Shown one piece after another: positions 1 through 24,630 of a stretch of DNA of 64,000 nt. The stretch comes from Escherichia phage DCP80. Each line of letters begins with the position of its first letter. Positions within the stretch are counted from its first letter, which is position 1. The DNA is taken from the sequence record PQ671644.1; one strand, 5' to 3'. The position numbers and the translations under genes were made by a program. Under the pieces are notes generated by a model, which was not told where the DNA came from, made no database searches, and saw only the letters and a program-made list of their open reading frames with translations.

Positions 1-734
1 GATACATCCAGCAAGTTGGCATCAATACGTTTGGCACATACTTCTTCAGCCATTTCCATGCTTATATAAAGAACATTATGACCAGTCTGAAGATAGTCAG
101 CAGCTAACGAACAAAGTCCAAGAGATTTACCGACGTTTGTCCCGGCCAGTAAAACGTTCTCTGTACCGTACTCAACCCCACCCTTTGTGATTTTATTCAG
201 GATGTTAATACGGAACGGAACCTTCTTCGATTTGTTCAGATAAGTCTGGAATCGAGCTTCGTAATCGTTTAACCAGTCATGGCCCAGAGCAGAGTCAAAA
301 CAGATAGACAATGCATCGCGCATGATGTCGGGGATAGCACCAATATCCGGGATTCGTTTATCACGTTTATCTTTCGGAAGTTCGGCATTACTCTGGATTT
401 CGATAATCCTGGATGTGGCATTGAACATCGCAGACTTCTGCACATACTTCTCGGTTTCTTTAACCAACCATTCCTGGTCTTCTGGAGTATCGGCCAGGAC
501 TCCTAAGAGTTTCTTTGTGCCTTCATATTCGACTTCAGAAAGGTCAGAACTGTCGAGCGCGATATCAAGTGCAGTCTTAGTTGGTACCGCTTGATATTCT
601 TTTACGTGTTCGTTAATCGTATTAAAAAGAGTCTTCGCGGGACCCTTTTCAAAATATGTGTTATTCAGATACGGCCAGACTTTAACAAAATATTCCTTGT
701 TAAAGAGTAGCTGGGATAAAATAGTTTCTACCAC
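1..734 (-). CDS. 41: Replicative DNA helicase gp41 (DnaB-like), N-terminal part; gene continues beyond window start
   Basis: Minus-strand translation from GTG at 734 reads VETILSQLLFNKEYFVKVWPYLN..., matching T4 gp41 N-terminus; GAGG RBS upstream; open to position 1. Confidence 0.8.
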   Translation of the reverse strand, partial: MVETILSQLLFNKEYFVKVWPYLNNTYFEKGPAKTLFNTINEHVKEYQAVPTKTALDIALDSSDLSEVEYEGTKKLLGVLADTPEDQEWLVKETEKYVQKSAMFNATSRIIEIQSNAELPKDKRDKRIPDIGAIPDIMRDALSICFDSALGHDWLNDYEARFQTYLNKSKKVPFRINILNKITKGGVEYGTENVLLAGTNVGKSLGLCSLAADYLQTGHNVLYISMEMAEEVCAKRIDANLLDV

Positions 735-1072
735 TTCCACCACCTCTTTTTCATTTTAATTTTATCAATTTCATCTTGTATTTGCATTGTAACACACTTT
801 TCTACATGCACAGCAAGCTCCGCTTTGCGGTCTTCAGAAGGGGTGCCGAAATCAACTGAAACTTTTCCAGATGGTTCAATTTTAATTCCGGTTACGTACA
901 CAATGTGACTGGACCCATCAGGGAGTGATAACAGAATTTCCTGTCGTACGGTTCCCATGGATTGCCGGATAATCTCCAAACTTTTTTCGTAGTAAGGTAC
1001 AGAAGGAGCCTTAGCTCCCTCCGCATCTTTCTCGAAATTATCTAAATCAGATAAATCGATATCATTCATCAA
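728..1072 (-). CDS. 40: gp40-like protein (head vertex assembly chaperone position)
   Basis: 114-aa ORF between uvsX and 41 as in T4 uvsX-40-41 operon; start overlaps uvsX stop; called by synteny and size. Confidence 0.55.
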   Translation of the reverse strand: MMNDIDLSDLDNFEKDAEGAKAPSVPYYEKSLEIIRQSMGTVRQEILLSLPDGSSHIVYVTGIKIEPSGKVSVDFGTPSEDRKAELAVHVEKCVTMQIQDEIDKIKMKKRWWKW

Positions 1073-2053
1073 GGTCTTCCATCATATCTAAATCGTTTTC
1101 GATATCTGCCGCAGACGGTTTTGTCTTACCTTCAGGAGCAGTGTATTTTTCAACCTTGGAGGCAATAAGCGCATCAACTTCGGCATCAACAACAGCATTG
1201 CTATCGATTGCACCCAGCTGGTAATGGCGTTTGATTGCGTCACGGAAAGGTTCGTGCTTGAACAACGGGCCCCAGAATTCGGTGCAGTTAGTATCTTTTG
1301 CGCGCCATGATTTTTCTTCGCGGACCATTTCACCGGTCTCAACATCAAGATATTCACGGTTATACCAACCAACTTTCGGTTTCACCACAAATCCGATTTC
1401 CATTGCCATATCAAGCAGGCCAGAATACGGGTCAATACCGCCATCGAATTTTACATCAATGAAGAATTTACTTTTCTCTTTGACCATACGAGATTTTTCG
1501 GCGTTCAGAACAAATTGGAAACCTTCAAGTTCTTTACCAGTTTCTTTAATCTGGCGTTTGCCGATAATGAATACGGTGTCTGCGGAATACATAACACCTG
1601 TACCACCGGTCATAACGGTTTTGCTATACATCTCAATCGTCTCGATTGTATGGTTAACCGCGACACAAGGAATATCCTTGATGCTAAAATATGGAGTAAC
1701 AATACGGAACAGAGATTTCAGGGATTTGGCACGAGTCATATCGCCAACAACTTTTTCGTTCATCGCATCTTCTGTTTCTTTTTTCGACGCCATGTTACCG
1801 ATTGAGTCAATAAAGATAATGACTTTTTCACCACGCTCAATTGCTTCAAGCTGGTTAACCATATCAACTTTCAATTGTTCAACCGACTGGATTGGTGTGT
1901 GGATAACACGTTCCGGGTCAACTTTCATTGCACGAAGATAGGCTTCTGTGATACCAAATTCTGAATCATAGAACAAACAGATTGCATCGGGGTATTTGTT
2001 CATATATGCAGAGACCATCGTTAAACCCATATTGGATTTAAAGTGTTTTGACN
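1062..2053 (-). CDS. uvsX: UvsX RecA-like recombinase, partial (N-terminus lost at N-run)
   Basis: Near-identity to T4 UvsX over ~330 aa (SKHFKSNMGLTMVSAYM...FIIGKRQIKE...); ORF-track N-terminus MRLR across Ns is an artefact. Confidence 0.9.
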
Positions 2054-2102
2054 NNNNNNNNNNNNNNNNNNNNNNNNNNNNNNNNNNNNNNNNNNNNNNN
2101 NN

Positions 2103-2155
2103 ACGCAACCTCATGTTCGTTTAATTGAACGTCATCATCAAAGAGACTTACAGCC
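2103..2155 (-). CDS. 62: Clamp-loader small subunit gp62, first 17 codons only (cut by N-run)
   Basis: ATG at 2155 overlapping gene 44 stop; MAVSLFDDDVQLNEHEVA matches T4 gp62 N-terminus. Confidence 0.6.
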
Positions 2156-3107
2156 ATTTCATTTCCCCAGCCAGTTGAGCAAACAGATAAGTCAAGTGAA
2201 CTTCGGTATTGGCCGCAATGCCATGATACTGATTGTTCTCACCTACAATCTCATACATGCGGATGATACTTGCACCAGTCAGTTTGCCATACATTTCATC
2301 AGCCAGCTTTGCAATGAAGCTTGAATAATCATTTGCATGTTTAGGAGCCAGACCACGAAGAACTTTAAAGTTACGGTCTTTAAGGGCATCAATCACATCA
2401 TCAATTGGCGTGCGATTGTTTGTCACGATACTCAGAATACCAGAATCGATAACACCCTTTGCAGAGTAACGGTCAAGCTCGTTAATTGTCTTACGCAGGT
2501 CCGGGAAGTTATGCTTAACCAGAGCAGCAACAACTTTCAGGTCTTCGATTTCAACGCCTTCGTTTTTACATACCGCAACTGCACGATGAATCATCTCTTT
2601 CATCATGGTAGTCTGGTCAGCCGGAGTTGCTTCACCGAACTTAATGACGCGACAACGAGACTGCAACGGAGTGATAATGCCATCGATATTGTTCGCGGTC
2701 ATAATGATTGAACAGTTGCTCGAATAAGCTTCCATAAAGCTACGAAGATGCCGTTGTGATTCGGCCAGACCTGCACGGTCAAACTCATCGATAACGATTA
2801 CCTTACGGCGACCTTCGATTGATTTGGATGATGCAAAGCGAGTCAATTCATTACGCACAAAGTCAATTCGACAATCGGAGCCGTTAACAAACAGCATATC
2901 AGAATTCGTATCTGCGCACATAGCTTTTGCAACTGTTGTCTTACCAGTACCAGGGGAACTACTGACCAGAATCAAGTTAGGAATCAAACCTTTTTTAACA
3001 ATCGCCTCTAATGTTTCTTTATCATGAGCCGGGAGAATACACTCTGATAATGTACCTGGGCGGTATTTTTGTTCCCACATGAATTCTTTGTCATTAACCG
3101 TTAACAT
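2148..3107 (-). CDS. 44: Clamp-loader large subunit gp44 (AAA+ ATPase)
   Basis: 319 aa, Walker A SPGTGKTT, near-identical to T4 gp44 throughout. Confidence 0.93.
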   Translation of the reverse strand: MLTVNDKEFMWEQKYRPGTLSECILPAHDKETLEAIVKKGLIPNLILVSSSPGTGKTTVAKAMCADTNSDMLFVNGSDCRIDFVRNELTRFASSKSIEGRRKVIVIDEFDRAGLAESQRHLRSFMEAYSSNCSIIMTANNIDGIITPLQSRCRVIKFGEATPADQTTMMKEMIHRAVAVCKNEGVEIEDLKVVAALVKHNFPDLRKTINELDRYSAKGVIDSGILSIVTNNRTPIDDVIDALKDRNFKVLRGLAPKHANDYSSFIAKLADEMYGKLTGASIIRMYEIVGENNQYHGIAANTEVHLTYLFAQLAGEMKWL

Positions 3108-3142
3108 ATATTTTCCTCATATTAGTTTCTACTTTGTACTCC

Positions 3143-3160
3143 ATGGGGCCGAAGCCCCAT
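3143..3160 (-). other. Intercistronic GGGGC(UUCG)GCCCC hairpin between genes 45 and 44
   Basis: Perfect 7-bp stem with UUCG tetraloop on the transcribed strand between 45 stop and 44 start. Confidence 0.5.
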
Positions 3161-3163
3161 TTA

Positions 3164-3859
3164 TTAATCTTGGAATTCGTGGCTAGAGCCTTGTTCCATT
3201 GCAATCACATAGCTTGCTTGTGTGCCTTCAAACTTCGTAGCAAATTTATCATCTTTCGCCCAAAGCATAACACGGTAATCAGCCGGAATCATTTTCATGT
3301 TCAGTTTGTTAATGATAAATTTAAACGCTGCATCACCTTCGTAATCGCCACACACCAGGGAATACAATGGACGCGCCAATTCTTTATCTTCGAGCTGGTT
3401 ATAACCATGGATAACAATCTTACCGTCTTTGTTGGTGATTGCAAAAGTATCCAGAGACAAACCACCAGCCACACGCAGAAGCTGCTGCAGGTCACTGCCT
3501 TTCAGGTCGAAGATAACCTTAGCTACCGGGAAAGGAATCTTCTTAGCAGGGAACACGATAGTGCTCGGGTCAGCCGCAGGCCAGTGAATCGTTGAACGTT
3601 GGTCTTTGATAATGATATTTGATGCGTCTTCAGCCAGAGATACTTCAGCTTGGTCAGTTACCAGGCCCAGGATACTTAAGAAGCCGTTCAGGTCATAAAT
3701 CGCAGCTTCAAAGTCAATTGTATCATTGATTTCGGATTCGCCATATGACGCTCCAGTTACAGAACGAGTCAGGATGGTATTACCCGGCTTAAGCATAATG
3801 CCAGAGTAAATGGAGGTGAAATTTTTCAATACCGCGATTGTGTCCTTTGAGAATTTCAT
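3164..3859 (-). CDS. 45: Sliding clamp gp45
   Basis: 231 aa; strong similarity to T4 gp45 (MKFSKDT...AIYDLNGFL...DLQQLLRV...). Confidence 0.93.
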   Translation of the reverse strand: MKFSKDTIAVLKNFTSIYSGIMLKPGNTILTRSVTGASYGESEINDTIDFEAAIYDLNGFLSILGLVTDQAEVSLAEDASNIIIKDQRSTIHWPAADPSTIVFPAKKIPFPVAKVIFDLKGSDLQQLLRVAGGLSLDTFAITNKDGKIVIHGYNQLEDKELARPLYSLVCGDYEGDAAFKFIINKLNMKMIPADYRVMLWAKDDKFATKFEGTQASYVIAMEQGSSHEFQD

Positions 3860-6265: not shown

Positions 6266-6515
6266 CGTAATAAGCATCCTTGATACATGATTCAGCCATA
6301 TGGATTAATGCCTCTGGGGTATCATCTTCCATTACATTAAAGCTAAATTCTACGGCCCAATCGGTGACTACATAGACTTTGATAAGTTGACCAGTTTCCC
6401 GGTCAGTGATAGCTTCAAACCAATACTTAATAGTATTCGGTTGATTATCGTCGTCAACCACATCACATTCGCGGATATGCTCAAGCCCCGCTTCATTAAA
6501 ATCATAAAGTCTCAT
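6252..6515 (-). CDS. Hypothetical protein in gp46.1 position
   Basis: 87-aa ORF between 47 and 46; synteny only. Confidence 0.4.
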   Translation of the reverse strand: MRLYDFNEAGLEHIRECDVVDDDNQPNTIKYWFEAITDRETGQLIKVYVVTDWAVEFSFNVMEDDTPEALIHMAESCIKDAYYDEDF

Positions 6516-7307
6516 GGTTGCACCTCAAGATATAATTTGTTGGCCAATGCTTTGAGAGCTTTTGATTCTTTCTCATTGGCGTCAGGTAATGCATCGATAT
6601 ATTCTGCCATCATATCTGTTAAGCGTTTTATGTCTAACTCTTCATCAGAGTCTGACGTATCAACACTGTTATCAACCTTATTGACAACACGCAATTCGTG
6701 CACACGCTTTTCTAATTCAGATTCGAACTTGGTCAGGTCTTTATCGACTTTTTCTACAATAACACGGACTGATAAGTCTTTGAAGTCGTCGTAGTTAATA
6801 GTTTCGTTTGGATAAAAAATCTTCCGATGCCAGGTGGTTTCATTCGGAATAAATTTCATCTCTTCGGTTTCTGTATCAAATTCCCAGAATCCGCGCGGGT
6901 CATTCTCATCACCTGCTGTTAATGTCCATGGCGTTCCTATGTACTTAACGTTCGCAGCTTCTGAAATGGTATGGAAGTGCCCAGACCAAACTTGCTTGTA
7001 CTTCTTAAGGAAATCAGGCTCAAGTCCGTGGGATTTCAATCCTTTATAGAAATAAAACCCGGTTAATTCCCAGTGACCGATGCAATATTCGGCACCAGAA
7101 GTTTTGATGTGTTGATGAATGTCAGTCGCGTTCTCGTCACACATCCATGGAATCATATCAATCTGACAACCGTCAAAATCAACAGTCGTTGGCTTATCGT
7201 AGATTTTAACATGGTCATACTTATTCAGGAGTTCAGTGATAGCATTAGGATGAATCTTATTCTTCAGATTCATGTCATGGTTCCCGACTATCGTGTGCAT
7301 AGTAATT
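6512..7307 (-). CDS. 47: Recombination nuclease subunit gp47 (Mre11/SbcD-like), partial (N-terminus lost at N-run)
   Basis: Phosphoesterase motifs GNHD and GHFH; matches T4 gp47 from ...ITLHTIVGNHD to C-terminus. Confidence 0.88.
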
Positions 7308-7322
7308 NNNNNNNNNNNNNNN

Positions 7323-7405
7323 TTCCCGGTCGCATTATCTTTAAAAATTCTATCAAGAAGTCCAAAAAGTAGGTCTGATAATGAAAATCCTACTTTTGGT
7401 TCCAT
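7323..7405 (-). CDS. t: Holin t, first 27 codons (cut by N-run)
   Basis: MEPKVGFSLSDLLFGLLDRIFKDNATG resembles T4 holin T N-terminus; lies downstream of gene 38 as in T4. Confidence 0.7.
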
Positions 7406-7441
7406 ACTTTTCTCCTTTAAAGATATTTATAATATGGGGTA

Positions 7442-8242
7442 TTATACTCTGCTTCCGTATATCGTACCAACGTTTTGCCAGTTAGGAGCATTACCGGCGA
7501 CTGCTGCCCCAGCATTACCACCAGCACCAACTTTAAGCACTTTACCTCCATCATTCCAAGCGTTTTGGCCTTTAGCACCGACATTCCCACCAGCACCTGA
7601 ATGCGCGTTACCATAATTATAACCACCACCTGCTCCGGTAAGAGATGCCGCCCCACCGGAGTATCCTCCGCCACCAGCTGCACCAAATGGTCTACCGCCG
7701 CCAGCGCCTATATCTTGCCAGTTAGCACCTGAATGGGGTCTATACGCGATGCCACCACCACCGCCACCACCACCGGCTATAGCGCCATTATTACGGATAC
7801 GAAGTTTAGTTCCGGCATTGTTTTGTATGGCTATTCCGCCGGCCTCACCATTACCATTGCCGTCGCTATGGGTCCAGCCTCCTCGGCCTCCTCGACCATA
7901 AACGGTAACACCGCTATTAATATTAAGTTGTATATAAGCATTAGGTAAGTTGCTAGGGAATTCCAGACATGGGTTTCCGCGGTTGTTAGATACCAAGTCA
8001 CCAGTAATTGTAATAACAACAGGCGCACTGCCTTGTGCTCTCATCCAGTTTATAAGGGTGTTTTTATCATAGTTATGATTAGCCCCTATAGATAAGTAAA
8101 TTTCTTTTGATTGGTTAGCCATCGAACCCATCCAACCCGGGACAGCTACACGAACATCTCGCATTGCTGCATCCATCCAACGTTGGCCAGTTTCGTCAAC
8201 TGCAGATTGTCCGACCCAACCAGGTAATCCTACAATTGCCAT
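7442..8242 (-). CDS. 38: gp38 tail-fibre adhesin, T2-type with glycine-rich loops
   Basis: 266 aa; N-terminus MAIVGLPGWVG...QRWM typical of T2-type gp38; several poly-Gly stretches including eight consecutive Gly. Confidence 0.8.
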   Translation of the reverse strand: MAIVGLPGWVGQSAVDETGQRWMDAAMRDVRVAVPGWMGSMANQSKEIYLSIGANHNYDKNTLINWMRAQGSAPVVITITGDLVSNNRGNPCLEFPSNLPNAYIQLNINSGVTVYGRGGRGGWTHSDGNGNGEAGGIAIQNNAGTKLRIRNNGAIAGGGGGGGGIAYRPHSGANWQDIGAGGGRPFGAAGGGGYSGGAASLTGAGGGYNYGNAHSGAGGNVGAKGQNAWNDGGKVLKVGAGGNAGAAVAGNAPNWQNVGTIYGSRV

Positions 8243-8273
8243 AATAAATCCTTAGGGCCCGAAGGCCCTTTTC

Positions 8274-11200
8274 TTAATTTAATTTAGCTTCAAGTTCTCT
8301 AACTTTAGCCGACAGGGTTTTAACTGCTTCAATTAACAGAGCAACTTGTGCCTGAGTCGAAACTGTCAGAACCATATTTTCCTGCGAATCTAAAGACTCA
8401 TGCACCGCTTCAGGTAATACTTCTTTAAGATTCTGAGCAATAACACCTGCTTCAGTTTGAACCGCTTCACCACCGATATATTCAGCTTTATCATAGATTA
8501 AACCGTCGAGCTGTTCAACCTTTTCAAGAGCATTTTCAATAGGCCTGAAGTTTGATTTCAAACGAATGTCAGAACGAATATAAACGTTTGGAGCATTTAT
8601 ATTTTTATATGAGTACAAATCACCGTTTTGGAAACGGAAAGTCTGTACGCCATTCGCATATATGTCTAATAATCCATCGCCATTTTGCTTAATACCGGTA
8701 TCACTATCGCCAATTGTTATACTACTTCCACCGAGTGAGTTAGTTGTATTAACACCAAAGGCACTTGTTTGTGGCATCTGTACTTTACCCGGGCAATCTA
8801 AAATGCCATCCATTGTAAATCGCCATCTTGCTTGTTGGCCGTTAGCGTTATCTCCGCGAATACGAATAATACCTTCTCGCCAACCAGCTGTGGTACCAGA
8901 GCCGACCCATCCAAATTCAAAGGTTTGACGATATCCAGAGGAACCATAGTTGCTGTATGCACCTACAATAGGATAATAACTACCTGAATTAGATAAATCA
9001 CCATGGTCTGCCATAAAGGTGATTTTAGATTTCATTGTATCTGAGGTATCTCCCCAACCAGAGGCACCGCGCCAACCTGCAACCACACGAGACGAGATAT
9101 TGCCTAAACTAGTATTACCACTGGTGACATTAAGGCCGCCCGCCACGTTCAGACCACCACCAGTAATATTCAGACCACTGCCCATGCCTACACGACCATC
9201 AGCCATGTTGATAGAGAAAGGTCTTAAGCCATTCCACAACCCGTCAGTTGCATTCGGGTTTTCTTCCGTGTTTTTATCCGTAACTAAAATATGAAAATTT
9301 TCACCGTCGTTTCTAATCAAAGCGGCATTAGAACCTATATCATTACCGCTGGATTTGATACGCATACCTTTTTGGTTATTGGTAACGTATTCACCACGTG
9401 TAACAATATCCGATTCGCCGGCAGCAAACATTCCGTCAATGTTGTTCAGCATTCTTACAGATTTACCTACAACATGACCTTCAGGTAATGTTTCTACCAA
9501 AGGCTGGACACCGCTATTAATACCCACTACGGTTACTTTACTATTGCTACTGCATGTATATTCTACCGCCAAAGAATTAGAATACCCACCTAAGTAAACG
9601 TAAATATCATAGGTATCTTCGCTTGTATTAACAGAAGCAATCTGAGAAATAGCTTCAGAAGTTCTATTCCACAGCGTAGCATTAAGGCCTTTAGGGTTAT
9701 TATTGCCGGTTCTAAGGACTATTTCGGCTATTGAAGCCTGACCATAACTTTTAAAATTAAATCCAGAACCACCTGATATTTTAAAGGATGCTGTACCCGT
9801 CGCTTGTGGAATTTCTACAGTAGCAAATTTATACCAACCTGTAGTAGCGCCGCCAGCCCAACCGCCTGTGTTAACTTTACGGTCTAACGTTGTGTTCAGG
9901 TTTTTAAAGTTATCTAATGCAGTGCTGCCTGTAATATTACCGTCAGGACCAATACGAACATCGGAACCAATTTTAAGTGCCTTGGTTATATCAACAGTAT
10001 CAGAGTTTAATGCAATACCATGGGAGTATGTATAGTTATGTAAACGAACAACGTTGCCGCCGTCGCCAATACCGAGATACCATTTTGTAACATCTGCTTT
10101 ACGTCCTTGGATAAAGTTGGATGATGCCTGGGATGAAGCATTTACCACAATGGCATCAGAATCCATATTAACACGCAGTCTACAGTCGGTCTGGACAAAT
10201 TTACTTACGTTGTCTACTGTAAAAAGTGGACCATACCCGGCACTTTTATTCCCCATTATAACCGTGCCGGTGGCTAAATTGATAGATAGCGGACGAAGGT
10301 CACTTATTCCACCATTTTCTCCAGCGTTCTGAAGAGTAGGAATAAGATGGAATGAAGCAGAAGAACCTGTTTCTGAACGACGGAAAATCATACCATATTC
10401 GGCATTCCAAATTCTTAATGCATCAGCGGTACCGCCTATTTTAACTTGACCGTTAAAAGTGGCGCCACCATTTATATTCAATCCGTTTGCTGAAGTGATA
10501 CTACCTTCCGATGAAATACTACCAGCAGTAGTCAATCCACCATTTACACGGAATTGAATAGAACCTACGGTTTGGGAACTTGTGGGAGCAACGCGTTGTG
10601 AATAAAAATGCCAACCCTGTCCATCGCCTAATTCAAATACAGTTTCTCTGCTTTTATTAGTGTCATCCTCAAATGCGTTACCCCATACTTTCATGGTCAC
10701 ATAGCTTTTGTTCTGACCCGGGCGGGTGCCTGCGTTCCAAACAATCGTTTTTGTGCCATTGATAGTGGAAGAAGCGCCGAACTTTATACCTTTATTGTTG
10801 TTGTTAGTATTAAAAAATAATTCGTTATCTAATTTAACTGGTTGGGTCGAGGAAACTGTGCCATCGGCTCTAAGATTCAGTTCATTAACCCCGGTTTTAA
10901 TATTCAAAATACCTGGTTCAATAATCATGCCTTCTGCCATAGAAATGGCTACACGACCTGTACCACGGAAATAATGATAAAGTTTACCATTAGAATTATA
11001 ACCTAAATGGGTTTGGCCATCCCCAGAGTTATTACCGTCTATTTCGGTTCTAATAGAAACCATAGAAGAGTTCTGGCCAGGCAGAAGCCAAGTAAGACCT
11101 TGGTCATTACTACGGCCAAATATGGTTTTACTAGTCCCACGGAAGCCGTCGGAAGTAATAGATGCAACGGAATAACCTCCACCAACTAAATCATAAACAC

Positions 11201-12027
11201 CTTGCTTAATATATTTCAGACCGGTTACAGTGTCACCGAGAACAAGATACTTATCGCCCATTACACCGACGTTACCATAATCACTAGACGGGAAACCCGT
11301 AGTGAATGTACCTAATGCAAGGCTATTACGGCCTGCCATTCGTCCGTCATTACGAATGCCATATTGTTTAGATGATGGAGTATTACCTGTCCACCATGAC
11401 ATTTCATCAGCTTGACCTGTCTGGGCGGTGCAAAGCTCATGCCACATAGTGCCACCAGACTTGGCGCGAACTTTACGAAGATAGTTTACACCATTCGTTT
11501 CGCCTGTGCCTGGGTATACATAATTAACTAATGAATCTGTATCATATACACCAAAGGCTTTGCCACCGTGGATAACTGTATCGACTGCAATGCGTTTAGT
11601 TACTAATGAATCTGATGCTAAAATACGGTTGGCCTGAAATTCACCACCATTTATAGAACGGAAATAGAATTCACTATTAGCAGTACCTTCTGTCCCCTGT
11701 TTAATCCTAATGCGTAATTCACCAGCATTTGTAGTTTGAGGACGTGCATATATAACACCGCGTTCACTGCCATCAGCATTTTCAAACCATAAATGGGCAT
11801 TTGATGTTGTATCGTTTGAAGCTCTTGAATAAAACGAGCCTTGCAACGCTCTAAAAGTTTGAGCCGAAATACTAGTGCCTGCTGTAATCGACCCGCTTGT
11901 AGAAAAGTTTCCAAAATTGTTTAATGGGCCGTTAATGCGTAAAGTTCCATTAATAGTTACATCCCCGTCAACCTGCCCACCTTTAGCAAAGCCCAAATCA
12001 ATAATCTGTCCCTGGTCTGACTTAGTN
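8274..12027 (-). CDS. 37: Long tail fibre distal subunit gp37, T2-type with C-terminal chaperone-like domain; N-terminus lost at N-run
   Basis: More than 1250 aa; N-terminal half near-identical to T4 gp37; C-terminus carries SDIRLKSNF motif and coiled-coil tail instead of the T4 His-box tip. Confidence 0.9.
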
Positions 12028-12062
12028 NNNNNNNNNNNNNNNNNNNNNNNNNNNNNNNNNNN

Positions 12063-12246
12063 GCGGAAAGGGGGTGTTATGAAAACATTCAAAGATTTTA
12101 TCAACGAAGATATGGTTGCAGGTGATGCAGGTGGAAACCCAACTAATATCACAACAGGTACCACTTCCGGGGCAGTTGTCAATAAAGGCCCTGAACAAAT
12201 CCCATCAAAAAAGCGTAAGAACAAAGACGATAAACCTACAGTATAA
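12063..12246 (+). CDS. 3' end of an ORF emerging from the N-run (possibly gene 41 C-terminus by synteny)
   Basis: Open frame from the gap ending ...PSKKRKNKDDKPTV; immediately upstream of gene 61. Confidence 0.3.
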
Positions 12247-12278
12247 TGGTCCTTCGGGGCCATTGAAATGAGGAAACT

Positions 12279-13307
12279 ATGTCATATATTGATAAAGAAT
12301 TTGCAGTCAGAGCTTTATCGTATCAACCACGTTATAGAGAAGTCACCGGGAGCACATTTAAAGCAAACTGCAGATGTAAAGTTTGTGGCGACTCCCAGAA
12401 AGATTCACATAAAGCCAGATTCTGGGCGTATACTAATCCGGCTGATGGCGCGGTTTACGTGAAATGTTTTAACTGTGACTACTCCACGCATATAAGCAAA
12501 TACATAAAAGAGTTTGAGCCGGATTTGCACCGGGAATATATGGTTGAGAAGTACAAGGAGAACGCCTTCGGGCGACAACGCACTGAAGTTGTCGAAACTC
12601 CGAAAGAACCAGAAAAAACTCCGGTTATCGAACAGCTTGCTTTTTGTGAAAGACTCGATACTTTACCAGAAGCACATCCGATAGTTAAGTATGTAAAAAG
12701 TCGATGTATTCCAAGCAATGTTTGGAACCGGTTATGGTTTACAAACCAATGGCCCGCATTAGTTAACTCCGTCAATCCTGGGACGTATAAGAATGAAACG
12801 AATGAACCACGCTTGGTTATTCCTATCTTCAACGGCAAAAAAGAAATCGAATCTTTCCAAGGACGAGCTCTTCGCAAAGATGCACCACAAAAATATATCA
12901 CAATCAAAGCTCACCCAGAAGCTTCCAAAGTCTATGGCGTAGACAAGATTGATGAGCGTAAACGCGTATGGGTAATGGAAGGTCCAATTGATAGTTTGTT
13001 TATCCCTAACAGCATTGCGATAACTGGTGGCACATTGTCATTGGAAGCAGTTCCTTATGCTGAAACCAGAGTATGGGTAATGGACAACGAGCCAAGACAT
13101 CCGGATACGATTAAACGTATGAAGAAGCTCGTTGAAGCTGGCGAAGCTGTTATGTTCTGGGACAATGCACCATGGCATACGAAAGACATAAATGAGATGG
13201 TTAAATCAGAAGGGGCAACCCCTGAACAAATCGAATCATATATGGCCGATAACGTTGCTCAAGGATTGATGGCGAGAATGCGACTTTCGAAGTACGCAAA
13301 AGTTTAG
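12279..13307 (+). CDS. 61: DNA primase gp61
   Basis: 342 aa; zinc ribbon CRCKVCGDS...CFNC and toprim region near-identical to T4 gp61. Confidence 0.92.
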   Translation: MSYIDKEFAVRALSYQPRYREVTGSTFKANCRCKVCGDSQKDSHKARFWAYTNPADGAVYVKCFNCDYSTHISKYIKEFEPDLHREYMVEKYKENAFGRQRTEVVETPKEPEKTPVIEQLAFCERLDTLPEAHPIVKYVKSRCIPSNVWNRLWFTNQWPALVNSVNPGTYKNETNEPRLVIPIFNGKKEIESFQGRALRKDAPQKYITIKAHPEASKVYGVDKIDERKRVWVMEGPIDSLFIPNSIAITGGTLSLEAVPYAETRVWVMDNEPRHPDTIKRMKKLVEAGEAVMFWDNAPWHTKDINEMVKSEGATPEQIESYMADNVAQGLMARMRLSKYAKV

Positions 13308-13363
13308 GAAGGGATTCCGGTAAAGTAACCGATGATGGAATGAATATGTTCTATTGTGACCTG

Positions 13364-13385
13364 GGGTAAGTGCACCCCTTGTGTT
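13364..13385 (+). terminator. Stem-loop terminator candidate downstream of gene 61
   Basis: GGGGT-AAGTGC-ACCCC hairpin followed by TTGTGTTG. Confidence 0.4.
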
Positions 13386-13415
13386 GCAGCGATAGGCACA
13401 ACCAGTAAGTTCCAC

Positions 13416-13613
13416 CTATATAAGGCCGATTAATGCTAGTGAAACATCTACAACTGATTCGAGCGCGACGACTGGCAATATAACACCATGTGCCAATGCA
13501 ATAGGGGCAACAATGAAATTCCAGAGTAGAACAAAACAGAGTATCGAAAGGACCAGAATCGTTCGCTTACGACTGCCTTTGATGGCTTGAATTAGACTAG
13601 ATAGTTTGAGCAT
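13416..13613 (-). CDS. Small hydrophobic membrane protein, opposite strand
   Basis: 65 aa, two predicted TM segments, AAAGGAGGA RBS; conserved in the second copy of this block. Confidence 0.45.
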   Translation of the reverse strand: MLKLSSLIQAIKGSRKRTILVLSILCFVLLWNFIVAPIALAHGVILPVVALESVVDVSLALIGLI

Positions 13614-13697
13614 ACATCCTCCTTTCTTGTATTTATGCTTTAAACCAATATGATATAATTAACATACAAACAATATGAATTGATAAGGAAAAATATA

Positions 13698-14216
13698 ATG
13701 GCTCATTTTAACGAGTGTTCTCAACTGATTGCTGGTGTTGATAAAGCGCAAGATGCGTATAATGATGTCCTAAAAGGCAATGATGACCCTCTGCAGATTA
13801 TGCTTGATATGCAGAAATCTTTGCAGGTTCGTCTGGCTACAGAAAAACCAGAATATAACGCACATCCAGATGAATTGGCAACCGCAGGCGATGTTGTTGC
13901 ATGGCTTCGTAACCAGAAAGATTATGTCGACGACGAATTCCGTGAACTTCTGACTTCGCTCGGTGGCATGTCTAATGGTGAGAAAGCCGCATCCAGTTGC
14001 TGGAAGCCGTGGAAAGCGCAACATGCTGAATATCGTAATCGTCGTATTGATGAACTGTCTCCTGAAGACCAGCTCGAAATTAAATTCGAAATGATTGATA
14101 TTCTGCACTTCGTTCTGAATATGTTTCAAGGTCTGGGTCTTTCTGCTGAAGAAATCTTTAAACTGTATTACTTGAAAAATGCCGAGAACTTTGCTCGCCA
14201 AGACCGAGGTTATTAA
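13698..14216 (+). CDS. 56: dCTP pyrophosphatase gp56
   Basis: MAHFNECSQLIAGVDKAQ...EEIFKLYYLKNAENFARQDRGY, near-identical to T4 gp56; ORF-track start 13680 is an upstream TTG. Confidence 0.9.
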   Translation: MAHFNECSQLIAGVDKAQDAYNDVLKGNDDPLQIMLDMQKSLQVRLATEKPEYNAHPDELATAGDVVAWLRNQKDYVDDEFRELLTSLGGMSNGEKAASSCWKPWKAQHAEYRNRRIDELSPEDQLEIKFEMIDILHFVLNMFQGLGLSAEEIFKLYYLKNAENFARQDRGY

Positions 14217-14497
14217 TGGCTCGTTTAAATAAACGTCAACTTAAGAAAGCTCGTAAGAAGCATATTAATGCTATAATTGAAAACGCTAATGTTGAAATCT
14301 TTGTAGAACTCTTAGCCAATCAACTAAAAAATTTATCTAAACAAGAAATTGATATGAATACTGAAAATGCTAAAAATGTAATCGAAACTCATAATGTTTT
14401 TGCTCAAGCTACAGCCGAATACATTGCCAATCCTACTGCTGAAAATCTAGCTAAAATGACTGAAGCCAATAAAGCAGTCCAAGCCGCCAAATTGTAA
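14216..14497 (+). CDS. Hypothetical protein
   Basis: 93-aa ORF coupled to gene 56 stop (ATGA overlap), Lys-rich N-terminus. Confidence 0.5.
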   Translation: MARLNKRQLKKARKKHINAIIENANVEIFVELLANQLKNLSKQEIDMNTENAKNVIETHNVFAQATAEYIANPTAENLAKMTEANKAVQAAKL

Positions 14498-14499
14498 GT

Positions 14500-14507
14500 T
14501 ATAAATA
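14500..14507 (+). promoter_or_regulatory. T4 late promoter box TATAAATA upstream of soc
   Basis: Exact TATAAATA about 30 nt upstream of soc start. Confidence 0.6.
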
Positions 14508-14538
14508 CACCTGTAATTAAACAACAAAGGAGTTTATT

Positions 14539-14772
14539 ATGGGTGGTTTCGTTAATATCAAAACCTTCACGCATCCAGCTGGTGAAGGTAAAGAAGTTAA
14601 AGGCGTTGAAGTATCAGTTCCGTTTGAAATCTATTCGAACGAGCACCGTATTGCTGATGCGCACTATCAGACTTTCCCTTCGGCCGTTGCAGCATATACT
14701 ACTGTAGTGACTGATGCAGCCGATTGGCGAACTAAGAACGCGGCAATGTTTACGCCTACCCCAGTAGTTTAA
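14539..14772 (+). CDS. soc: Small outer capsid protein Soc
   Basis: 77 aa; GFVNIKTF...AHYQTFPS... resembles T4 Soc; late promoter upstream. Confidence 0.8.
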   Translation: MGGFVNIKTFTHPAGEGKEVKGVEVSVPFEIYSNEHRIADAHYQTFPSAVAAYTTVVTDAADWRTKNAAMFTPTPVV

Positions 14773-14777
14773 TTATA

Positions 14778-14802
14778 GGGAACCTTCGGGTTCCCTTTTT
14801 TG
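14778..14802 (+). terminator. Rho-independent terminator
   Basis: GGGAACC-TTCG-GGTTCCC hairpin followed by TTTTTTG. Confidence 0.7.
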
Positions 14803-14849
14803 CTTTTAATAGAGATGGTATAATTATTTCAACTACAGAGGAGAATACT

Positions 14850-15047
14850 ATGTTAAACCGTTGGATTAAACCAAATAAAACTTTAGATGAAGTTATTGCC
14901 CATGATGTGCATTTTAAGTATGGTCTGGGTGTGTTTGACGAGGTTGTCGTGCACTCGTTCATGATGCACGATGATGATTCTTTAGAATTCAATATTGAAA
15001 TCCGTTATGATGATGGTCAAGTTGAATTTAAACGAGGTTTCCTATGA
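14850..15047 (+). CDS. Hypothetical protein
   Basis: 65-aa ORF with GAGGAGAA RBS. Confidence 0.5.
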   Translation: MLNRWIKPNKTLDEVIAHDVHFKYGLGVFDEVVVHSFMMHDDDSLEFNIEIRYDDGQVEFKRGFL

Positions 15048-15403
15048 TTAGTTGGCTCAAGAATTTATTCAAGACTAAACCTGGTGAAGGGGTGGTTCCT
15101 GTTAGCCTGCCAGATGTTAAACTAAGAGAATATGTTTACATGGGCGATGGTATGATGGAAGAAGTTCGTCGCCGCCCAGAAAAAGCCGGTAATGTCGGAC
15201 CAGGCGCATTGCCATTGAATTCGAAAAAGTTAAAAGAGCATCTGGATTCAAGACGTTCTACAAGCCATGTCGATACTACACCGCATATTGATATGACTCC
15301 GATTGTGGTTACTGCGGCCGCTGTCAGTTCGTGGACTGGTGATTCGTCTTATTCCTCCTATGATTCAGGAAGCTGCGATTCATCTTCCAGCTCGTGTGAT
15401 TAA
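15044..15403 (+). CDS. Hypothetical protein with Ser/Cys-rich C-terminus
   Basis: 119-aa ORF, start overlaps upstream stop; C-terminus SYDSGSCDSSSSSCD. Confidence 0.5.
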   Translation: MISWLKNLFKTKPGEGVVPVSLPDVKLREYVYMGDGMMEEVRRRPEKAGNVGPGALPLNSKKLKEHLDSRRSTSHVDTTPHIDMTPIVVTAAAVSSWTGDSSYSSYDSGSCDSSSSSCD

Positions 15404-15598
15404 ATGAGAATTACAAGTTGGCTTAAAGATTGGTTGGTTACCCCGGGGATTGATGATTCCTGGGTGGCCAGAGCCGAGGAAGAAATGCAGCGCGAAGCTG
15501 AAGAATGGGCCGCCGCAAGCGTCAAAGATATGCAGGAAAAGAAGACCGAACGAGCTGTGCTTAAACTGATGCGTGATATCTACGGAGATAAATCATGA
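15404..15598 (+). CDS. Hypothetical protein
   Basis: 64-aa ORF, identical protein in second copy at 44193-44387. Confidence 0.5.
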
Positions 15599-15744
15599 CA
15601 CAAGAAGAAGCTGAACGTCAGGCAAAAGAAGCACTGGATTTGCTTTTGAAAATTGGCAGTAAAATGATGGAAGAAAATGAAAAGTACATCAAGGAAAATA
15701 AAGTTCCTGATGGTCCATTAGTTGGTAAGAGGAAAACATTATGA
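15595..15744 (+). CDS. Hypothetical small protein
   Basis: 49-aa ORF with ATGA overlaps at both ends. Confidence 0.35.
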
Positions 15745-16229
15745 AAGTATATGAATTAGAATTCTATGTCCGTGATTCTGCTGGGCAAACACGACCTTAC
15801 GATGCAACAGCCTGTCTTATCTTTGCATATAATGGCATGGATTCGGTTACTGAGTTGGAAACAAAATTAATGAACCTGACGATGCCAGAAAATGTCATGA
15901 TGAAGGTATTTCATAACAAAAACGTTAATGTGGCTGAAGGGTGTCCGTTTACTGTTTCCGAAGCTCTACACATTAAAGGCTATCGTCACCCGGACCCTTA
16001 TGCAGAAGGTACTGCGGATATCTTCTATAAAGATACCGATAGAATTTCAGAAGAACGCCTTAAAGGTCGCACATATCTGATTTCCACTACCGACGACCTT
16101 GCTGAAGTTGAACGTCAGATTTGGAAGCACTTTGATATCGGTCTGCGCTTTACTTTAACAGAAGAAGCTATTCAAGATACTAAAATGCGTGCTCGTATGT
16201 ATGGTTACGGTCCGATTGGTGGTTACTAA
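15741..16229 (+). CDS. Hypothetical protein
   Basis: 162-aa ORF, RBS AGGAAAA. Confidence 0.55.
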
Positions 16230-16405
16230 TGGATTTATTTGAACTTTTTGAAGAGCCTAAAGCTCCCACAGAAGCCCGTGTGGACCTAGTTGACGAACTT
16301 GATGCGATTATACAGAAGCACGGTTTTAGTCTCCCATTGGAAGTTCTGCGCGACCTGGCCTCATATTACGACGACCCACCTCCATGGGCACCATGGAAAC
16401 AGTAG
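16229..16405 (+). CDS. Hypothetical small acidic protein
   Basis: 58-aa ORF overlapping upstream stop. Confidence 0.4.
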   Translation: MDLFELFEEPKAPTEARVDLVDELDAIIQKHGFSLPLEVLRDLASYYDDPPPWAPWKQ

Positions 16406-16562
16406 TTTACTTACTCCCCTCCTAATGACATAATGACCTTTCTTACAACAGAGAGGTCATTATGAACATCATCAAATCTGATACCGAACCCAACCAGTTA
16501 AAATTTAGTGAAATGGAGATAGCTTCANNNNNNNNNNNNNNNNNNNNNNNNNNNNNNNNNNN

Positions 16563-16778
16563 ACTGAAGGCACAAGCCCCGGTGGCCAAGGTTCAAGTCA
16601 ATCAGCAGGCCCTTCTAATGGTTCTGCACATGCATCACATTCTCAAGGTATAGAGAATATTAAATCCAGCTATGTAAATACCACTCACGGTAAAGCACAG
16701 GAAGCATGGGCGAAAGGTAGAGTAGTTACTGATTCTGTTTTCTGTCATATGCCAAAATATGTTGGTTGTAAGAAATAA
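16563..16778 (+). CDS. C-terminal fragment of unknown Gly/Ser-rich protein (5' end in N-run)
   Basis: Open frame from gap to TAA at 16776-16778. Confidence 0.35.
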   Translation, partial: TEGTSPGGQGSSQSAGPSNGSAHASHSQGIENIKSSYVNTTHGKAQEAWAKGRVVTDSVFCHMPKYVGCKK

Positions 16779-16782
16779 TCTA

Positions 16783-16806
16783 AGGACCCTTCGGGGTCCT
16801 TTTTTA
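16783..16806 (+). terminator. Rho-independent terminator
   Basis: AGGACCC-TTCG-GGGTCCT hairpin followed by TTTTTT. Confidence 0.7.
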
Positions 16807-16810
16807 TTTT

Positions 16811-16870
16811 AAAAAGTAGTGTACAACCAGATGGTCATAAGACATAATGATTCCATACTGAGTTACCAAA
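16811..16870 (+). promoter_or_regulatory. Early promoter cassette, family A
   Basis: -35-like GTGTAC 16819-16824, 18-nt spacer, -10 CATAAT 16843-16848, conserved ATTCCATACTGAGTTAC leader. Confidence 0.6.
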
Positions 16871-16889
16871 TAAACAAACGGAGAATAAA

Positions 16890-17096
16890 ATGTTAGAATT
16901 AATCAAAGCTGCTGGTGAAAAAGGTCTGATGGTTAACACTCGTGACCCTGAGCAACGTCAAGCATTTGGTGAGTTAAAAGCCAAAGGTCTGGTTAAAGCA
17001 TCCCTTGGTATTGGTAATGCTTTGCGTGTGACTTTGACCCCTGCAGGTAAAGCAATGTTCTTCCCTAAACCATTACCAAAACGTCGTCGCAAGTGA
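16890..17096 (+). CDS. Hypothetical protein
   Basis: 68-aa ORF behind promoter cassette, RBS GGAGAA. Confidence 0.55.
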   Translation: MLELIKAAGEKGLMVNTRDPEQRQAFGELKAKGLVKASLGIGNALRVTLTPAGKAMFFPKPLPKRRRK

Positions 17097-17102
17097 GGAA
17101 TT

Positions 17103-17405
17103 ATGAAGAAGTATGAACTTGACATGATTGAGGCATGTCTGAAATCTGCTGACCATTTTAAGTTGAAAATGCACAAGTTAAGAGGAATGGTCAAAACTCC
17201 AGAAGAGAAGAAGCGATATGCTCTTAAGGAGAAATGTAAAGCTCTTATCATGATGGATAAGCTGCAAATGGTCGCCGCAGAAGCTCACAGGACACGTAAA
17301 GCCGAGGCCCTTGGTGTTTATATGGCAGAGCAGCTTCATCGTGCACAGCAAGCCGTTAAGAGCGTCTGGTTCAGCGGTGAAAATACTGAAAGAACTTTTA
17401 ATTAA
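17103..17405 (+). CDS. Hypothetical protein
   Basis: 100-aa ORF, RBS GAGGAA. Confidence 0.55.
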   Translation: MKKYELDMIEACLKSADHFKLKMHKLRGMVKTPEEKKRYALKEKCKALIMMDKLQMVAAEAHRTRKAEALGVYMAEQLHRAQQAVKSVWFSGENTERTFN

Positions 17406-17460
17406 ATGTGTACATAGTATGGGGATAGACGTATAATGTTCCCATACTGAGTTACCAAAT
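17405..17460 (+). promoter_or_regulatory. Early promoter cassette, family A
   Basis: GTGTAC 17408-17413, 18-nt spacer, TATAAT 17432-17437, CCATACTGAGTTAC leader. Confidence 0.6.
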
Positions 17461-17473
17461 ACTGGAGAATAAA

Positions 17474-17998
17474 ATGGACGCAAAATCAATCTTTAATCTG
17501 ATTAATTACAATAATGGTAATTTTAAATCAGAAGCGCAAAGCAAGTTCTTTAATGATGTTGCTTGTGCAGGTGAGATTACAGTATCAGGTGGTCAGACTT
17601 ATAAAAACGCCTGGAACTGGATTGTGACTGTTGATTCAGTTGGTATTGTTGATGTGTATAAAAACACCAACAAAAACCGCTCTTTGTTCTGGTCAAGAGA
17701 GACTAATGCAGAATATCAAGCGACAAGAGCGAAGAAAAATATGCCTACTGAATCTGATGTACAAAACATCAAATCAGATATCCAATATTATGATGGTCTG
17801 ATTGCTGAACAACAAGCGGTGCTTGATAAGTTCAATGAAATCAAGGCGTGTAAAGAGATTCCTGAATTCATGAGGGAATCAGTTAATGAACAATACAATC
17901 TCACTTCAGAGCGTATTGAAACCTATACCAAACAAAGAGCAGAGCGCCAGGTACTCCTTCAGAAGTTTGAAGAGCGTTTAAAGACGGTTCTCGCATAA
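17474..17998 (+). CDS. Hypothetical protein
   Basis: 174-aa ORF. Confidence 0.6.
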   Translation: MDAKSIFNLINYNNGNFKSEAQSKFFNDVACAGEITVSGGQTYKNAWNWIVTVDSVGIVDVYKNTNKNRSLFWSRETNAEYQATRAKKNMPTESDVQNIKSDIQYYDGLIAEQQAVLDKFNEIKACKEIPEFMRESVNEQYNLTSERIETYTKQRAERQVLLQKFEERLKTVLA

Positions 17999-18061
17999 AC
18001 GCTTTATACCAAGGATGGTATAATGGTTCTGACCTTTGATTAATCTATTGAGGAAATTATT

Positions 18062-18904
18062 ATGTCACAAGCAATTAATGAAATTCGTTCTGAAGTTAAA
18101 AAAGTTATTAAATTTGGTCGTATTCCAAGCACTAAAGATGTGGTTGAAAAGGTTCTATATATGATGTGGGACAAGTTCAATGTTTGTACTGTTAAAAATG
18201 ACTTCACTAAAATCTTTGACAAGACTAAAGGTTCGTTTACATTAGAAGACCGAGTCATGAAAACTCTTCGTAAAACAGGTATGTTGTCTCGTGCTAATGC
18301 CAAAATTATTCTTAAAAAATATAACAAAGGCTACGACCTTTATGGTCGTGCGATTAACACCATGACGTTTGATGAAGTGGTTAAAGACCTTCATGCCAAC
18401 CAACGACGTTTACTAGCACTAGGTGCTCGCCTTGCAAAAGGTCAAGATAAACAAATGACCTTTAAAACCAATAATTCTTTAGATTATAAAGTATTCAATG
18501 TTATTAAAGGTCAAAATGAAGGCGAATACAGTATTTCTTCTTTTAGTGGTTGTCAATATGACAACTGGAAGTTCCATCTCCGATTGGCCTTGTCTGAATT
18601 AGAACAGCACGGTGTTCTTAGTTTTGGTGATGCCGAAACTGGAGCAGGTCAGCGTATTAAACTTTATAAAATTAAAGACCTGGCTGAAGACTCTTCAGAA
18701 CAAGCTCCTAAAATGGAACCTGTTCCAGTGCGAAGCAATGAAAAATATTCAGAGCAAATTGAGCTTTTCACTAAACAGATTGAAGAGCTTAACATCACCA
18801 TCCAGCAGCAAGATGATGAAATTTTCCGCCTGTCAGGACTGAACGGCGCGGCAAAAGCTGAACGTCAGAAACTGATGGACGTTATTAAATTGCTTAAGGC
18901 TTAA
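18062..18904 (+). CDS. Hypothetical protein
   Basis: 280-aa ORF, RBS GAGGAAA, C-terminal coiled-coil-like region. Confidence 0.6.
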   Translation: MSQAINEIRSEVKKVIKFGRIPSTKDVVEKVLYMMWDKFNVCTVKNDFTKIFDKTKGSFTLEDRVMKTLRKTGMLSRANAKIILKKYNKGYDLYGRAINTMTFDEVVKDLHANQRRLLALGARLAKGQDKQMTFKTNNSLDYKVFNVIKGQNEGEYSISSFSGCQYDNWKFHLRLALSELEQHGVLSFGDAETGAGQRIKLYKIKDLAEDSSEQAPKMEPVPVRSNEKYSEQIELFTKQIEELNITIQQQDDEIFRLSGLNGAAKAERQKLMDVIKLLKA

Positions 18905-18905
18905 T

Positions 18906-19121
18906 ATGACCATTTTGATTATCAGTATTATTTTTGGTTATCTTGTGACGGGTTTTATTACTACCCTGTTGCTTCACAAGTTTGATAGTCCCTACGAAAG
19001 TGGGGACGAGTATGATGCGGTGTTCACAACATTTTGCTGGCCTATATTCTGGGTAGTCGCTGTTATAATGTGTGTGACCTGGCCTTTTGCTAAACTCTAT
19101 GAAAAATTATTTGGACTATGA
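18906..19121 (+). CDS. Small membrane protein
   Basis: 71 aa, two hydrophobic segments. Confidence 0.5.
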   Translation: MTILIISIIFGYLVTGFITTLLLHKFDSPYESGDEYDAVFTTFCWPIFWVVAVIMCVTWPFAKLYEKLFGL

Positions 19122-20004: not shown

Positions 20005-20005
20005 T

Positions 20006-20035
20006 GTTTACTTCCAAGGATGGAGGGAGTATAAT
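20006..20035 (+). promoter_or_regulatory. Sigma70-type early promoter
   Basis: GTTTAC 20006-20011, 18-nt spacer, TATAAT 20030-20035. Confidence 0.55.
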
Positions 20036-20062
20036 GAATTCCTACTTTATGAGGAGAACACT

Positions 20063-21856: not shown

Positions 21857-21859
21857 ATA
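21852..21859 (+). promoter_or_regulatory. T4 late promoter box TATAAATA upstream of gene 22
   Basis: Exact TATAAATA about 30 nt upstream of gene 22 start. Confidence 0.6.
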
Positions 21860-21888
21860 AATGTATATCTTAACAACAGGACTACAAA

Positions 21889-22707: not shown

Positions 22708-22728
22708 TTTAATAAGGTTATACAACAC

Positions 22729-24288: not shown

Positions 24289-24303
24289 TCCTTAATAAAT
24301 TTA

Positions 24304-24614: not shown

Positions 24615-24630
24615 TTTTAAACTCCATTGT

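Follow-up and report, generated by a model that had tools for sequence, protein, structure and literature searches.

Two long-tail-fibre tip modules in the Escherichia phage DCP80 assembly as probable alternative alleles of one locus in a mixed phage sample

The window analysed here is a stretch of 64,000 nucleotides from the sequence record of Escherichia phage DCP80 (PQ671644.1). It holds two different modules for the long-tail-fibre tip, both on the minus strand and both where the first-pass annotation had placed them: module A in 7323-12026 and module B in 24963-29045. The same annotation had typed module A as a T2-type gp37 with a gp38 adhesin and module B as a T4-type gp37 with a His-box tip and a gp38 chaperone, and the searches against Pfam, PHROGs and PDB sequences bear this contrast out. 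It had made the T2-type assignment depend on a similarity of 7442-8242 to T2-family gp38, which is indeed found (Pfam: PF05268; PDB: 6F45_D).

The gp38 of module A (7442-8242, minus strand) is a protein of 266 amino acids that matches the monomeric adhesins of the T2/S16 type. The GP38 family (Pfam: PF05268) matches over its own full length with an E-value of 3.6e-67, and the Gp38_N domain (Pfam: PF21721, 5.8e-16), with which gp38 attaches to gp37, is found at residues 1-42. In PHROGs the best family is phrog_2056 (1.3e-98), and the protein aligns to residues 6-247 of the solved S16 gp38 adhesin (PDB: 6F45_D, 6e-42). The C-terminal domain has glycine-rich motifs split by hypervariable segments, visible in alignment A1, as would be expected of the polyglycine-sandwich fold.

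Over the whole protein, gp38 of module A is 69-70% identical (BLASTP) to its nearest Dhakavirus adhesins, those of IME341 and fDHCT2, and over residues 1-120 the identity to both rises to about 95%. In alignment A1 the protein is chimeric, with residues 1 to ~120 of the Dhakavirus/Gaprivervirus type and hypervariable loops of the RB32/LHE83 type. Neither the exact protein in the public collections searched nor an exact 42-mer of module A in genome, viral or metagenome contig collections gave a match, and the protein is a new allele of the T2/S16-type adhesin. The adhesin of RB32 binds OmpA plus LPS (PMC3157838) and that of LHE83 binds OmpA (PMC10987938). Since the loops of the module A adhesin resemble those of these two phages, its receptor is presumably OmpA.

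Next to the adhesin gene lies gp37 of module A, the distal long-tail-fibre subunit (8274-12026, minus strand), which matches phrog_1699 with 4e-277. The contig end cuts its 5' side at codon 40, so that the first 39 codons are missing. The listed open reading frame 8274-12263 is an artefact which reads through a run of N into the adjoining contig. At its C-terminus gp37 carries an intramolecular chaperone of the Peptidase_S74 family (Pfam: PF13884, 1e-15, residues 1152-1209), which is predicted to be cleavable, and it has no His-box needle. It also matches the S16 gp37 tip (PDB: 6F45_A, 6.6e-9), and beyond residue ~715 it has nothing similar to the tip of module B. The amino acid identity to IME341 gp37 is 84%, and a sliding-window comparison shows a mosaic, the pieces of which are 85-99% and never 100% identical to different published phages. 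A segment at about 10900-10530 diverges from the relatives compared.

Module A thus shares several features with the known T2/T6/S16-type tip (PDB: 6F45; PMC3157838, PMC12032242): the gene order 37-38-t, a gp38 with attachment domain and glycine-rich/hypervariable domain, and the Peptidase_S74 end of gp37. It differs from it by the chimeric, new gp38 allele and by the one divergent gp37 segment.

The gp38 of module B (25086-25631, minus strand) has 181 amino acids counted from its ATG, while the open reading frame list has a TTG start at 25637. It matches the tail fiber assembly family phrog_105 with 8e-44, is 88% identical to T4 gp38 and has distant matches to lambda Tfa. There was no match to PF05268, and no family was assigned from the local Pfam copy; the identity of the protein was settled via PHROGs and a precomputed Pfam annotation (Caudo_TAP_N). 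This annotation comes from two Logan contigs that are unrelated and have one normal locus each; in both, the exact protein from the ATG lies between gp37 and t. The exact gp37 of module B, and its gp38 counted from the TTG, were not found in the public protein records searched. By these family matches gp38 of module B is a Tfa-like assembly chaperone and not an adhesin.

The gp37 of module B (25659-28832, minus strand, 1057 amino acids) matches phrog_1699 with 2e-265 and ends in a Collar domain (Pfam: PF07484, 1.3e-10) and a His-x-His needle. Its residues 780-1057 match the T4 gp37 needle (PDB: 2XGF_A, 3e-92), in which collar and needle align to T4 gp37 residues 785-1026. Upstream of it lies the C-terminal end of gp36 (28841-29045, minus strand), which is cut by the contig end (phrog_1425, 1e-11) and is annotated as gp36 in the matching references. 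Module B has the 36-37-38-t order of T4. It differs from T4 in sitting in a Dhakavirus/Gaprivervirus backbone of about 41% GC, with phage 04086 as its nearest relative (96.8% DNA identity end to end), and in a tip with additional His-box repeats and an altered distal head region. With such a tip, the receptor specificity may differ from that of T4.

Both pieces open with the same 111 bases, at 7323-7433 and at 24963-25073 on the minus strand, which can be read directly from the sequence and which agree with the observation of the first-pass annotation that the same holin t start follows both modules. Of holin gene t the segment comprises the initial 83 nt, with the start codon at 7405, and it extends over the 28 nt upstream, in which the late-promoter motif TATAAATA lies at 7424-7431. 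The identity is exact over the 111 bases and the sequences then diverge instantly. The N-terminal 27 amino acids of gene t adjoin gp38 in every reference locus, and the remainder of the gene is on a contig outside the window. The 111-base segment would be the branch vertex of an assembly graph.

One explanation for the shared start is a single phage genome with both modules, arising for example from a tandem duplication of 37-38-t in which one copy was replaced; this was the dual host-range determinant proposed by the first-pass annotation. If true, such a phage could build long tail fibres of two kinds and use receptors of two classes. Both modules are intact, have no stop codons and are each accompanied by an intact t start with the late-promoter motif, and a repeat within one genome would likewise fork at a shared k-mer. 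This reading would however need a physical link between the two modules, and the window does not offer one, being a sorted list of contigs.

At least 17 contigs make up the window; they are separate from one another, ordered by decreasing length and padded with N to lines of 60 bases. All 15 runs of N end at a window position of the form 60k+2, and the piece lengths drop strictly along the window (5205, 4704, 4465, 4200, 4159, 4083 ... 3194). One junction, at 20762/20763, has no N at all: it lies between the contigs of 4200 bp and 4159 bp, the former of which fills exactly 70 lines of 60 bases. On phage 212, the two sides of this junction fall at 161310-165513 and 108254-104096, regions which are 57 kb apart. 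Altogether the pieces are spread around the entire ~171 kb, Dhakavirus/Gaprivervirus-like genome of phage 212 with 94.5-100% identity. The first-pass annotation had taken the runs of N for those of a scaffold, which does not hold. Modules A and B are on different contigs of this concatenation, so their presence in a common window is uninformative on physical linkage. Neither contig has unique flanks of its own at the shared side, as both start at the same base of the 111-mer, and the modules are probably on separate molecules.

The heavy fragmentation marks a difficult assembly, and the second module could in principle be an artefact of cross-sample contamination, index hopping or chimeric misassembly. 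Against this, each module runs in frame over its full length and shows synteny with published loci, with module B at 96.8% identity to its counterpart in 04086, which makes such an artefact extremely improbable. Contamination would moreover be just one way for two phages to come into one read set, and would leave the conclusion on linkage unchanged.

Besides the tail-fibre tip, a second locus is present in two versions. The first, a contig with primase (gp61), dCTPase and soc at 12063-16527 (plus strand), has 98.4% identity to phage 212. The second, at 44163-47536 (minus strand), has the character of a bubble contig: it covers the same genes over 3374 bp with 96.6% identity to the first, and both of its ends are exact 111-mers inside 12063-16527. 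The two haplotypes map to one single-copy place in each reference record. They differ at 115 positions, mostly third codon positions (23 of 36, 26 of 30 and 16 of 21 in three open reading frames, 1 of 5 in a short fourth one), and no stop codon is introduced. This pattern led us to reject sequencing errors as the source of the differences.

Taken together, all four exact shared ends measure 111 bases, and with the second locus in two alleles this points to a de Bruijn graph assembly with k of about 111 and to at least two related phages in the sample. In de Bruijn graphs of mixed populations, strain bubbles and forks show the same features: exact ends of the length k, single-copy mapping and allele-like substitutions. 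For a single genome with both modules, the remaining genome would be expected in one version, and one would have to assume that an unrelated single-copy locus, with primase, dCTPase and soc, had undergone a large duplication as well.

We therefore consider it highly likely, on the evidence of the contigs, that the two modules are alternative alleles of a single 36-37-38-t locus, one per phage, in a mixed short-read assembly. The first-pass annotation had offered a mixed phage population with two haplotypes of this locus as its fallback, and the separate contigs, the shared 111-mer and the second locus all fit it. At least two T-even-type coliphages, closely related to each other and belonging to the Dhakavirus/Gaprivervirus group, would be in the sample. 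Their reads would have gone into one short-read de Bruijn graph with k of ~111, a value deduced from the overlaps. The assembler would have merged the sequence common to both phages and forked where they differ, and the fork in gene t would have yielded two contigs opening with the same 111 bases. From what the literature describes for tips of the T2/S16 type and the T4 type (PMC3157838, PMC12032242), gp37 of the phage with module A would shed its C-terminal chaperone and then be capped by the monomeric gp38 adhesin. In the phage with module B, the His-box needle of gp37 would itself be the receptor binder and gp38 would serve solely as a folding chaperone.

The far end of the module A contig adds a complication. 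It lies within an N-terminal region of gp37 that is homologous to module B, and its last base (12026) is not part of a 111-mer with a partner anywhere in the window; the module B piece differs from it at 2 of the last 11 bases. The population or the graph thus has a greater complexity than two clean genomes would give.

The same N-terminal region bears on a further explanation, in which a single lineage has just swapped the cassette and parent and recombinant propagate together. Over the N-terminal ~500 nt of gp37, modules A and B are about 90% identical, which exceeds the 52-68% between module A and IME341, and the t start is exactly identical in both contigs. A recent swap would nevertheless leave isogenic backbones, and here the difference is 3.4%, with a synonymous bias, in the primase locus and about 10% in the gp37 N-terminal region. 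In addition, the exchanges in module A are old, because the mosaic pieces are 85-99% and not 100% identical to published phages. A swap within one lineage is accordingly improbable, with a small chance of being right, and the suggestion of the first-pass annotation that module exchange is in progress is not borne out, the mosaic boundaries being a sign of past exchange only.

The references examined carry one tip type each. In 12 of 12 independent references, which comprise phage 212 as the only complete genome and 11 loci with at most 10 kb of flank, there is one 36-37-38 locus of a single type followed by t, and none holds both. Both tip types occur in Dhakavirus, with the T4-type in 04086 and the T2-type in IME341 and IME08, and also in Gaprivervirus, with the T4-type in VR25 and VR7 and the T2-type in VR20. 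The viral-contig search with single proteins returned 7 loci only and serves to show the difference between VR20 and VR25, not as a broad survey. In these genera gp36 and the N-terminal part of gp37 form one boundary of the cassette, and the gene t promoter forms the other. As in the present assembly, either cassette is found at one locus of one backbone family; the difference is that the published pairs are separately purified isolates, while here both versions are in one assembly.

Among phage records, 759 were found with an adhesin gp38, 295 with a chaperone gp38 and 1,048 with the fused query. By inclusion-exclusion at most 6 of the 1,048 records hold both gp38 types, so that the counts would permit a few phages with two modules. 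The E-value threshold cost 9 places, which offsets the deficit of 6 records, and the number of records with both types is consistent with zero, though the figures leave room for up to 6. With one tip type per reference, modules on separate contigs that fork at one 111-mer and a second locus in two alleles, a dual host-range determinant in one genome is very improbable.

What is seen here is ordinary allelic cassette diversity within a mixed sample. Runs of N in concatenated draft assemblies need not represent scaffolding and a common window does not represent linkage, and a claim of dual host range from such concatenated data would be an artefact. The current view of T-even tail-fibre evolution is unchanged by these results, and gp38 of module A is a further example of recombination shuffling the hypervariable loops of the adhesin. 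Two coliphages related at about 97% and with different tip architectures can co-occur in one sample, and their receptors probably differ, with an OmpA-type adhesin on one and a T4-type needle on the other. Such co-occurrence bears on the design of phage cocktails and on purity checks of phage isolates.

The two types of tail-fibre tip that the first-pass annotation had seen in this window are both present and were correctly typed, as judged from the matches of their gp38 and gp37 proteins to Pfam, PHROGs, 6F45 and 2XGF. Module A, on the minus strand of the third piece of the window (7323-12026), holds the first 27 codons of the holin gene t, gp38A (266 aa, 7442-8242) and gp37A (8274-12026), which lacks its first 39 codons because the contig ends there. 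gp38A matches the Pfam families GP38 (3.6e-67) and Gp38_N (5.8e-16), phrog_2056 and the crystallised S16 adhesin (6F45_D, 6e-42), while gp37A has a Peptidase_S74 intramolecular chaperone at its C-terminal end and matches the S16 gp37 tip (6F45_A); the architecture is T2/S16-type. Module B, on the minus strand of piece 6 (24963-29045), has the same holin t start, gp38B (181 aa, 25086-25631), gp37B (1057 aa) and the end of gp36. gp38B matches phrog_105 ('tail fiber assembly') and shares 88% identity with T4 gp38, Caudo_TAP_N is annotated on a public protein identical to it, and the last 278 residues of gp37B align with the T4 needle tip 2XGF (3e-92). This module is T4-type.

The window contains 15 N-runs of 5 to 58 bases, all ending at 60k+2, so each following piece begins in the same column of the 60-base lines. 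Complete pieces become monotonically shorter along the window (5205, 4704, 4465, [8359], 4083, 4050, 3812, 3696, 3384, 3374, 3362, 3355, 3305 and 3194), with the 8359-base piece at 16563-24921 as the sole break. This piece consists of two contigs abutting without any N: its first 4200 bases map to Escherichia phage 212 (PQ765507) at 161310-165513 and its last 4159 bases to 108254-104096, 57 kb away and on the opposite strand. The junction at 20762/20763 carries no N because a 4200-bp contig fills exactly 70 lines, and after splitting there the length order is strictly descending. The N-runs are therefore padding between the FASTA records of a length-sorted contig list rather than gaps in a scaffold, and nothing about linkage can be read from the order, orientation or neighbourhood of pieces within the window. 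At least 17 contigs, with a GC content of 38-42%, are spread round the whole 171 kb genome of phage 212 at 94.5-100% identity. Three open reading frames were rejected as chimeras, namely 20063-20806, which spans the hidden junction, and 6512-7405 and the part of 8274-12263 beyond 12026, which read through N-runs.

Pieces 3 and 6 share their starting point and match without a difference over exactly 111 bases, which bears out the earlier remark that both modules are followed by the same holin t start. These bases comprise 83 nt of t and 28 nt upstream, including TATAAATA at 7424-7431, with divergence setting in downstream of the gp38 stop codon, by 8 nt in piece 3 and by 12 nt in piece 6. The same length recurs at a second locus, where piece 11 (44163-47536) is a reverse-strand copy of positions 189-3566 of piece 4 (12063-16527) at 96.6% identity. 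Both ends of piece 11 are exact 111-mers of piece 4, the differences running from alignment column 112 to 111 columns short of the end. Exact overlaps of constant length at branch points are the trace of a de Bruijn graph assembler, and their presence at two unrelated places points to such an assembly with k about 111, in which pieces 3 and 6 are a fork and piece 11 is an unpopped bubble. In each related genome, pieces 4 and 11 map to one and the same place, the primase gp61-dCTPase-soc region. Their 115 differences introduce no stop codons and fall largely on third codon positions (primase 23/36, dCTPase 26/30, third ORF 16/21, short fourth ORF 1/5), which rules out errors; judged by this pattern the two are natural alleles, so that two or more related phage genomes were present in the read set. 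Piece 3, at its right end (11916-12026, gp37A codon 40), lacks an exact 111-mer partner among the window contigs, and piece 6 continues across the homologous place, mismatching at two of the last 11 bases. This end must reflect a coverage gap or a third path of the graph, located in contigs beyond the window.

Modules A and B are thus very probably alternative alleles from a mixed-genome sample, carried on separate molecules, as the first-pass annotation had thought at least as likely with its two haplotypes and as the 111-base fork and the piece 4/11 alleles support. Its other proposal, a single genome with both modules as a dual host-range determinant, draws on their co-occurrence, which results from the construction of the window and the mixed phage sample; given the sorted contig list, the fork and the second locus in two alleles, it is highly improbable. 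Local tblastn of the reference loci with type-specific probes found none that combined both types. All ten distinct references (phage 04086, fDHCT2, IME341, phage 212, two Logan contigs and four further IMG/VR loci, leaving out L010, which repeats the IME341 locus) contain a single 34-35-36-37-38-t-asiA locus, which is of one type. The short loci of RB32 and LHE83, which bring the independent references to 12, have a single gp38 adhesin gene between gp37 and t. Among 50,697 phage records the adhesin was found in 759, the chaperone in 295 and the fused query in 1,048; at most six records could hold both gp38 types, and zero is equally possible because the E-value threshold removed nine places. 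Alternative cassettes among close relatives are already well documented: in Dhakavirus the T4 type is found in 04086 and the T2 type in IME341 and IME08, and in Gaprivervirus the T4 type in VR25 and VR7 and the T2 type in VR20. In the phage 212 record (PQ765507.1, loci L003 and L004, about 48960-54113) product names are displaced by one gene round the tail-fibre locus, with the gp38 chaperone labelled 'holin', gp37 'tail fiber assembly protein' and gp36 'distal subunit', and this annotation should not be taken at face value.

gp37A and gp37B are homologous over the first ~590 aligned residues, with identity above 90% over the first ~230 and then about 60%, and are unrelated beyond. Sliding-window DNA comparison with module B, IME341 and fDHCT2 showed that module A is a mosaic. 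From 12026 to ~11530 it is ~90% identical to module B and fDHCT2 and only 52-68% to IME341, from 11530 to 10930 it is 91-99% identical to IME341, and from 10450 to 8050 it is 85-99% identical to IME341 and fDHCT2 apart from short stretches where identity drops to 63-83%. The stretch at ~10900-10530 is divergent from all three (only 50-75%), is flanked by segments 91-99% identical to IME341 and appears to be an unsampled shaft variant. The gp38 specificity domain (7976-7530) has only 52-67% identity to the three comparators because its loops are of another kind: in the protein alignment gp38A is of Dhaka/Gaprivervirus type from residue 1 to about 120, and the four loops between the glycine-rich motifs, such as IAYRPHSGANWQDIG, GGYNYGNAHSG and GQNAWNDGGKVLKVGAGG, closely match RB32 and LHE83. 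RB32 requires OmpA plus LPS (PMC3157838) and the receptor of LHE83 is OmpA (PMC10987938), so this likeness points to OmpA as the most likely receptor of module A.

Comparison with phage 212 also brought out features of other contigs. At 47688-47971 (+) a group I intron (Rfam RF00028, 74.1 bits, full model) immediately precedes the C-terminal part of NrdB, the ribonucleotide reductase small subunit (PF00268, 48046-48525), and phage 212 has nothing that corresponds to the first 440 bp of this contig; the nrdB allele therefore contains an intron, as in T4 and unlike phage 212. Relative to phage 212 there is an insertion of ~694 bp at 43212-43906, which follows closely on the tail sheath gene and codes for a 222-aa protein without known function (43232-43900, +; phrog_5104, 6e-81). 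The protein gives a treble-clef zinc-finger match that is weak and below threshold, and the insertion may be a mobile or accessory gene. The contig at 51003-54357, with tRNA-Met, tRNA-Asn and tRNA-Arg at 52219-52452, is 100% identical over 3355 bp to phage 212, an isolate from chicken faeces, whereas the other contigs reach 94.5-98.7%. This suggests a mosaic backbone or one co-assembled phage that is locally very near phage 212.

What is new here lies at the sequence level only: the gp38 allele is chimeric and gp37 is mosaic. In the T2/S16-type tip the C-terminal domain of gp37 aids trimerisation and is then cleaved off, and monomeric gp38 docks with its N-terminal domain on the gp37 tip, its hypervariable loops facing the outer-membrane protein; in the T4 type gp37 is folded by gp38 and gp57A and its His-box needle makes direct contact with the receptor (PMC12032242, PMC3157838). 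For such adhesins the established route of shuffling is recombination at their conserved flanks and glycine-rich motifs (PMC3157838, PMC12032242). As read from the sequence, the t-side boundary of the cassette falls just upstream of the late-promoter motif of t, a position at which either cassette could be swapped without disturbing lysis-gene expression.
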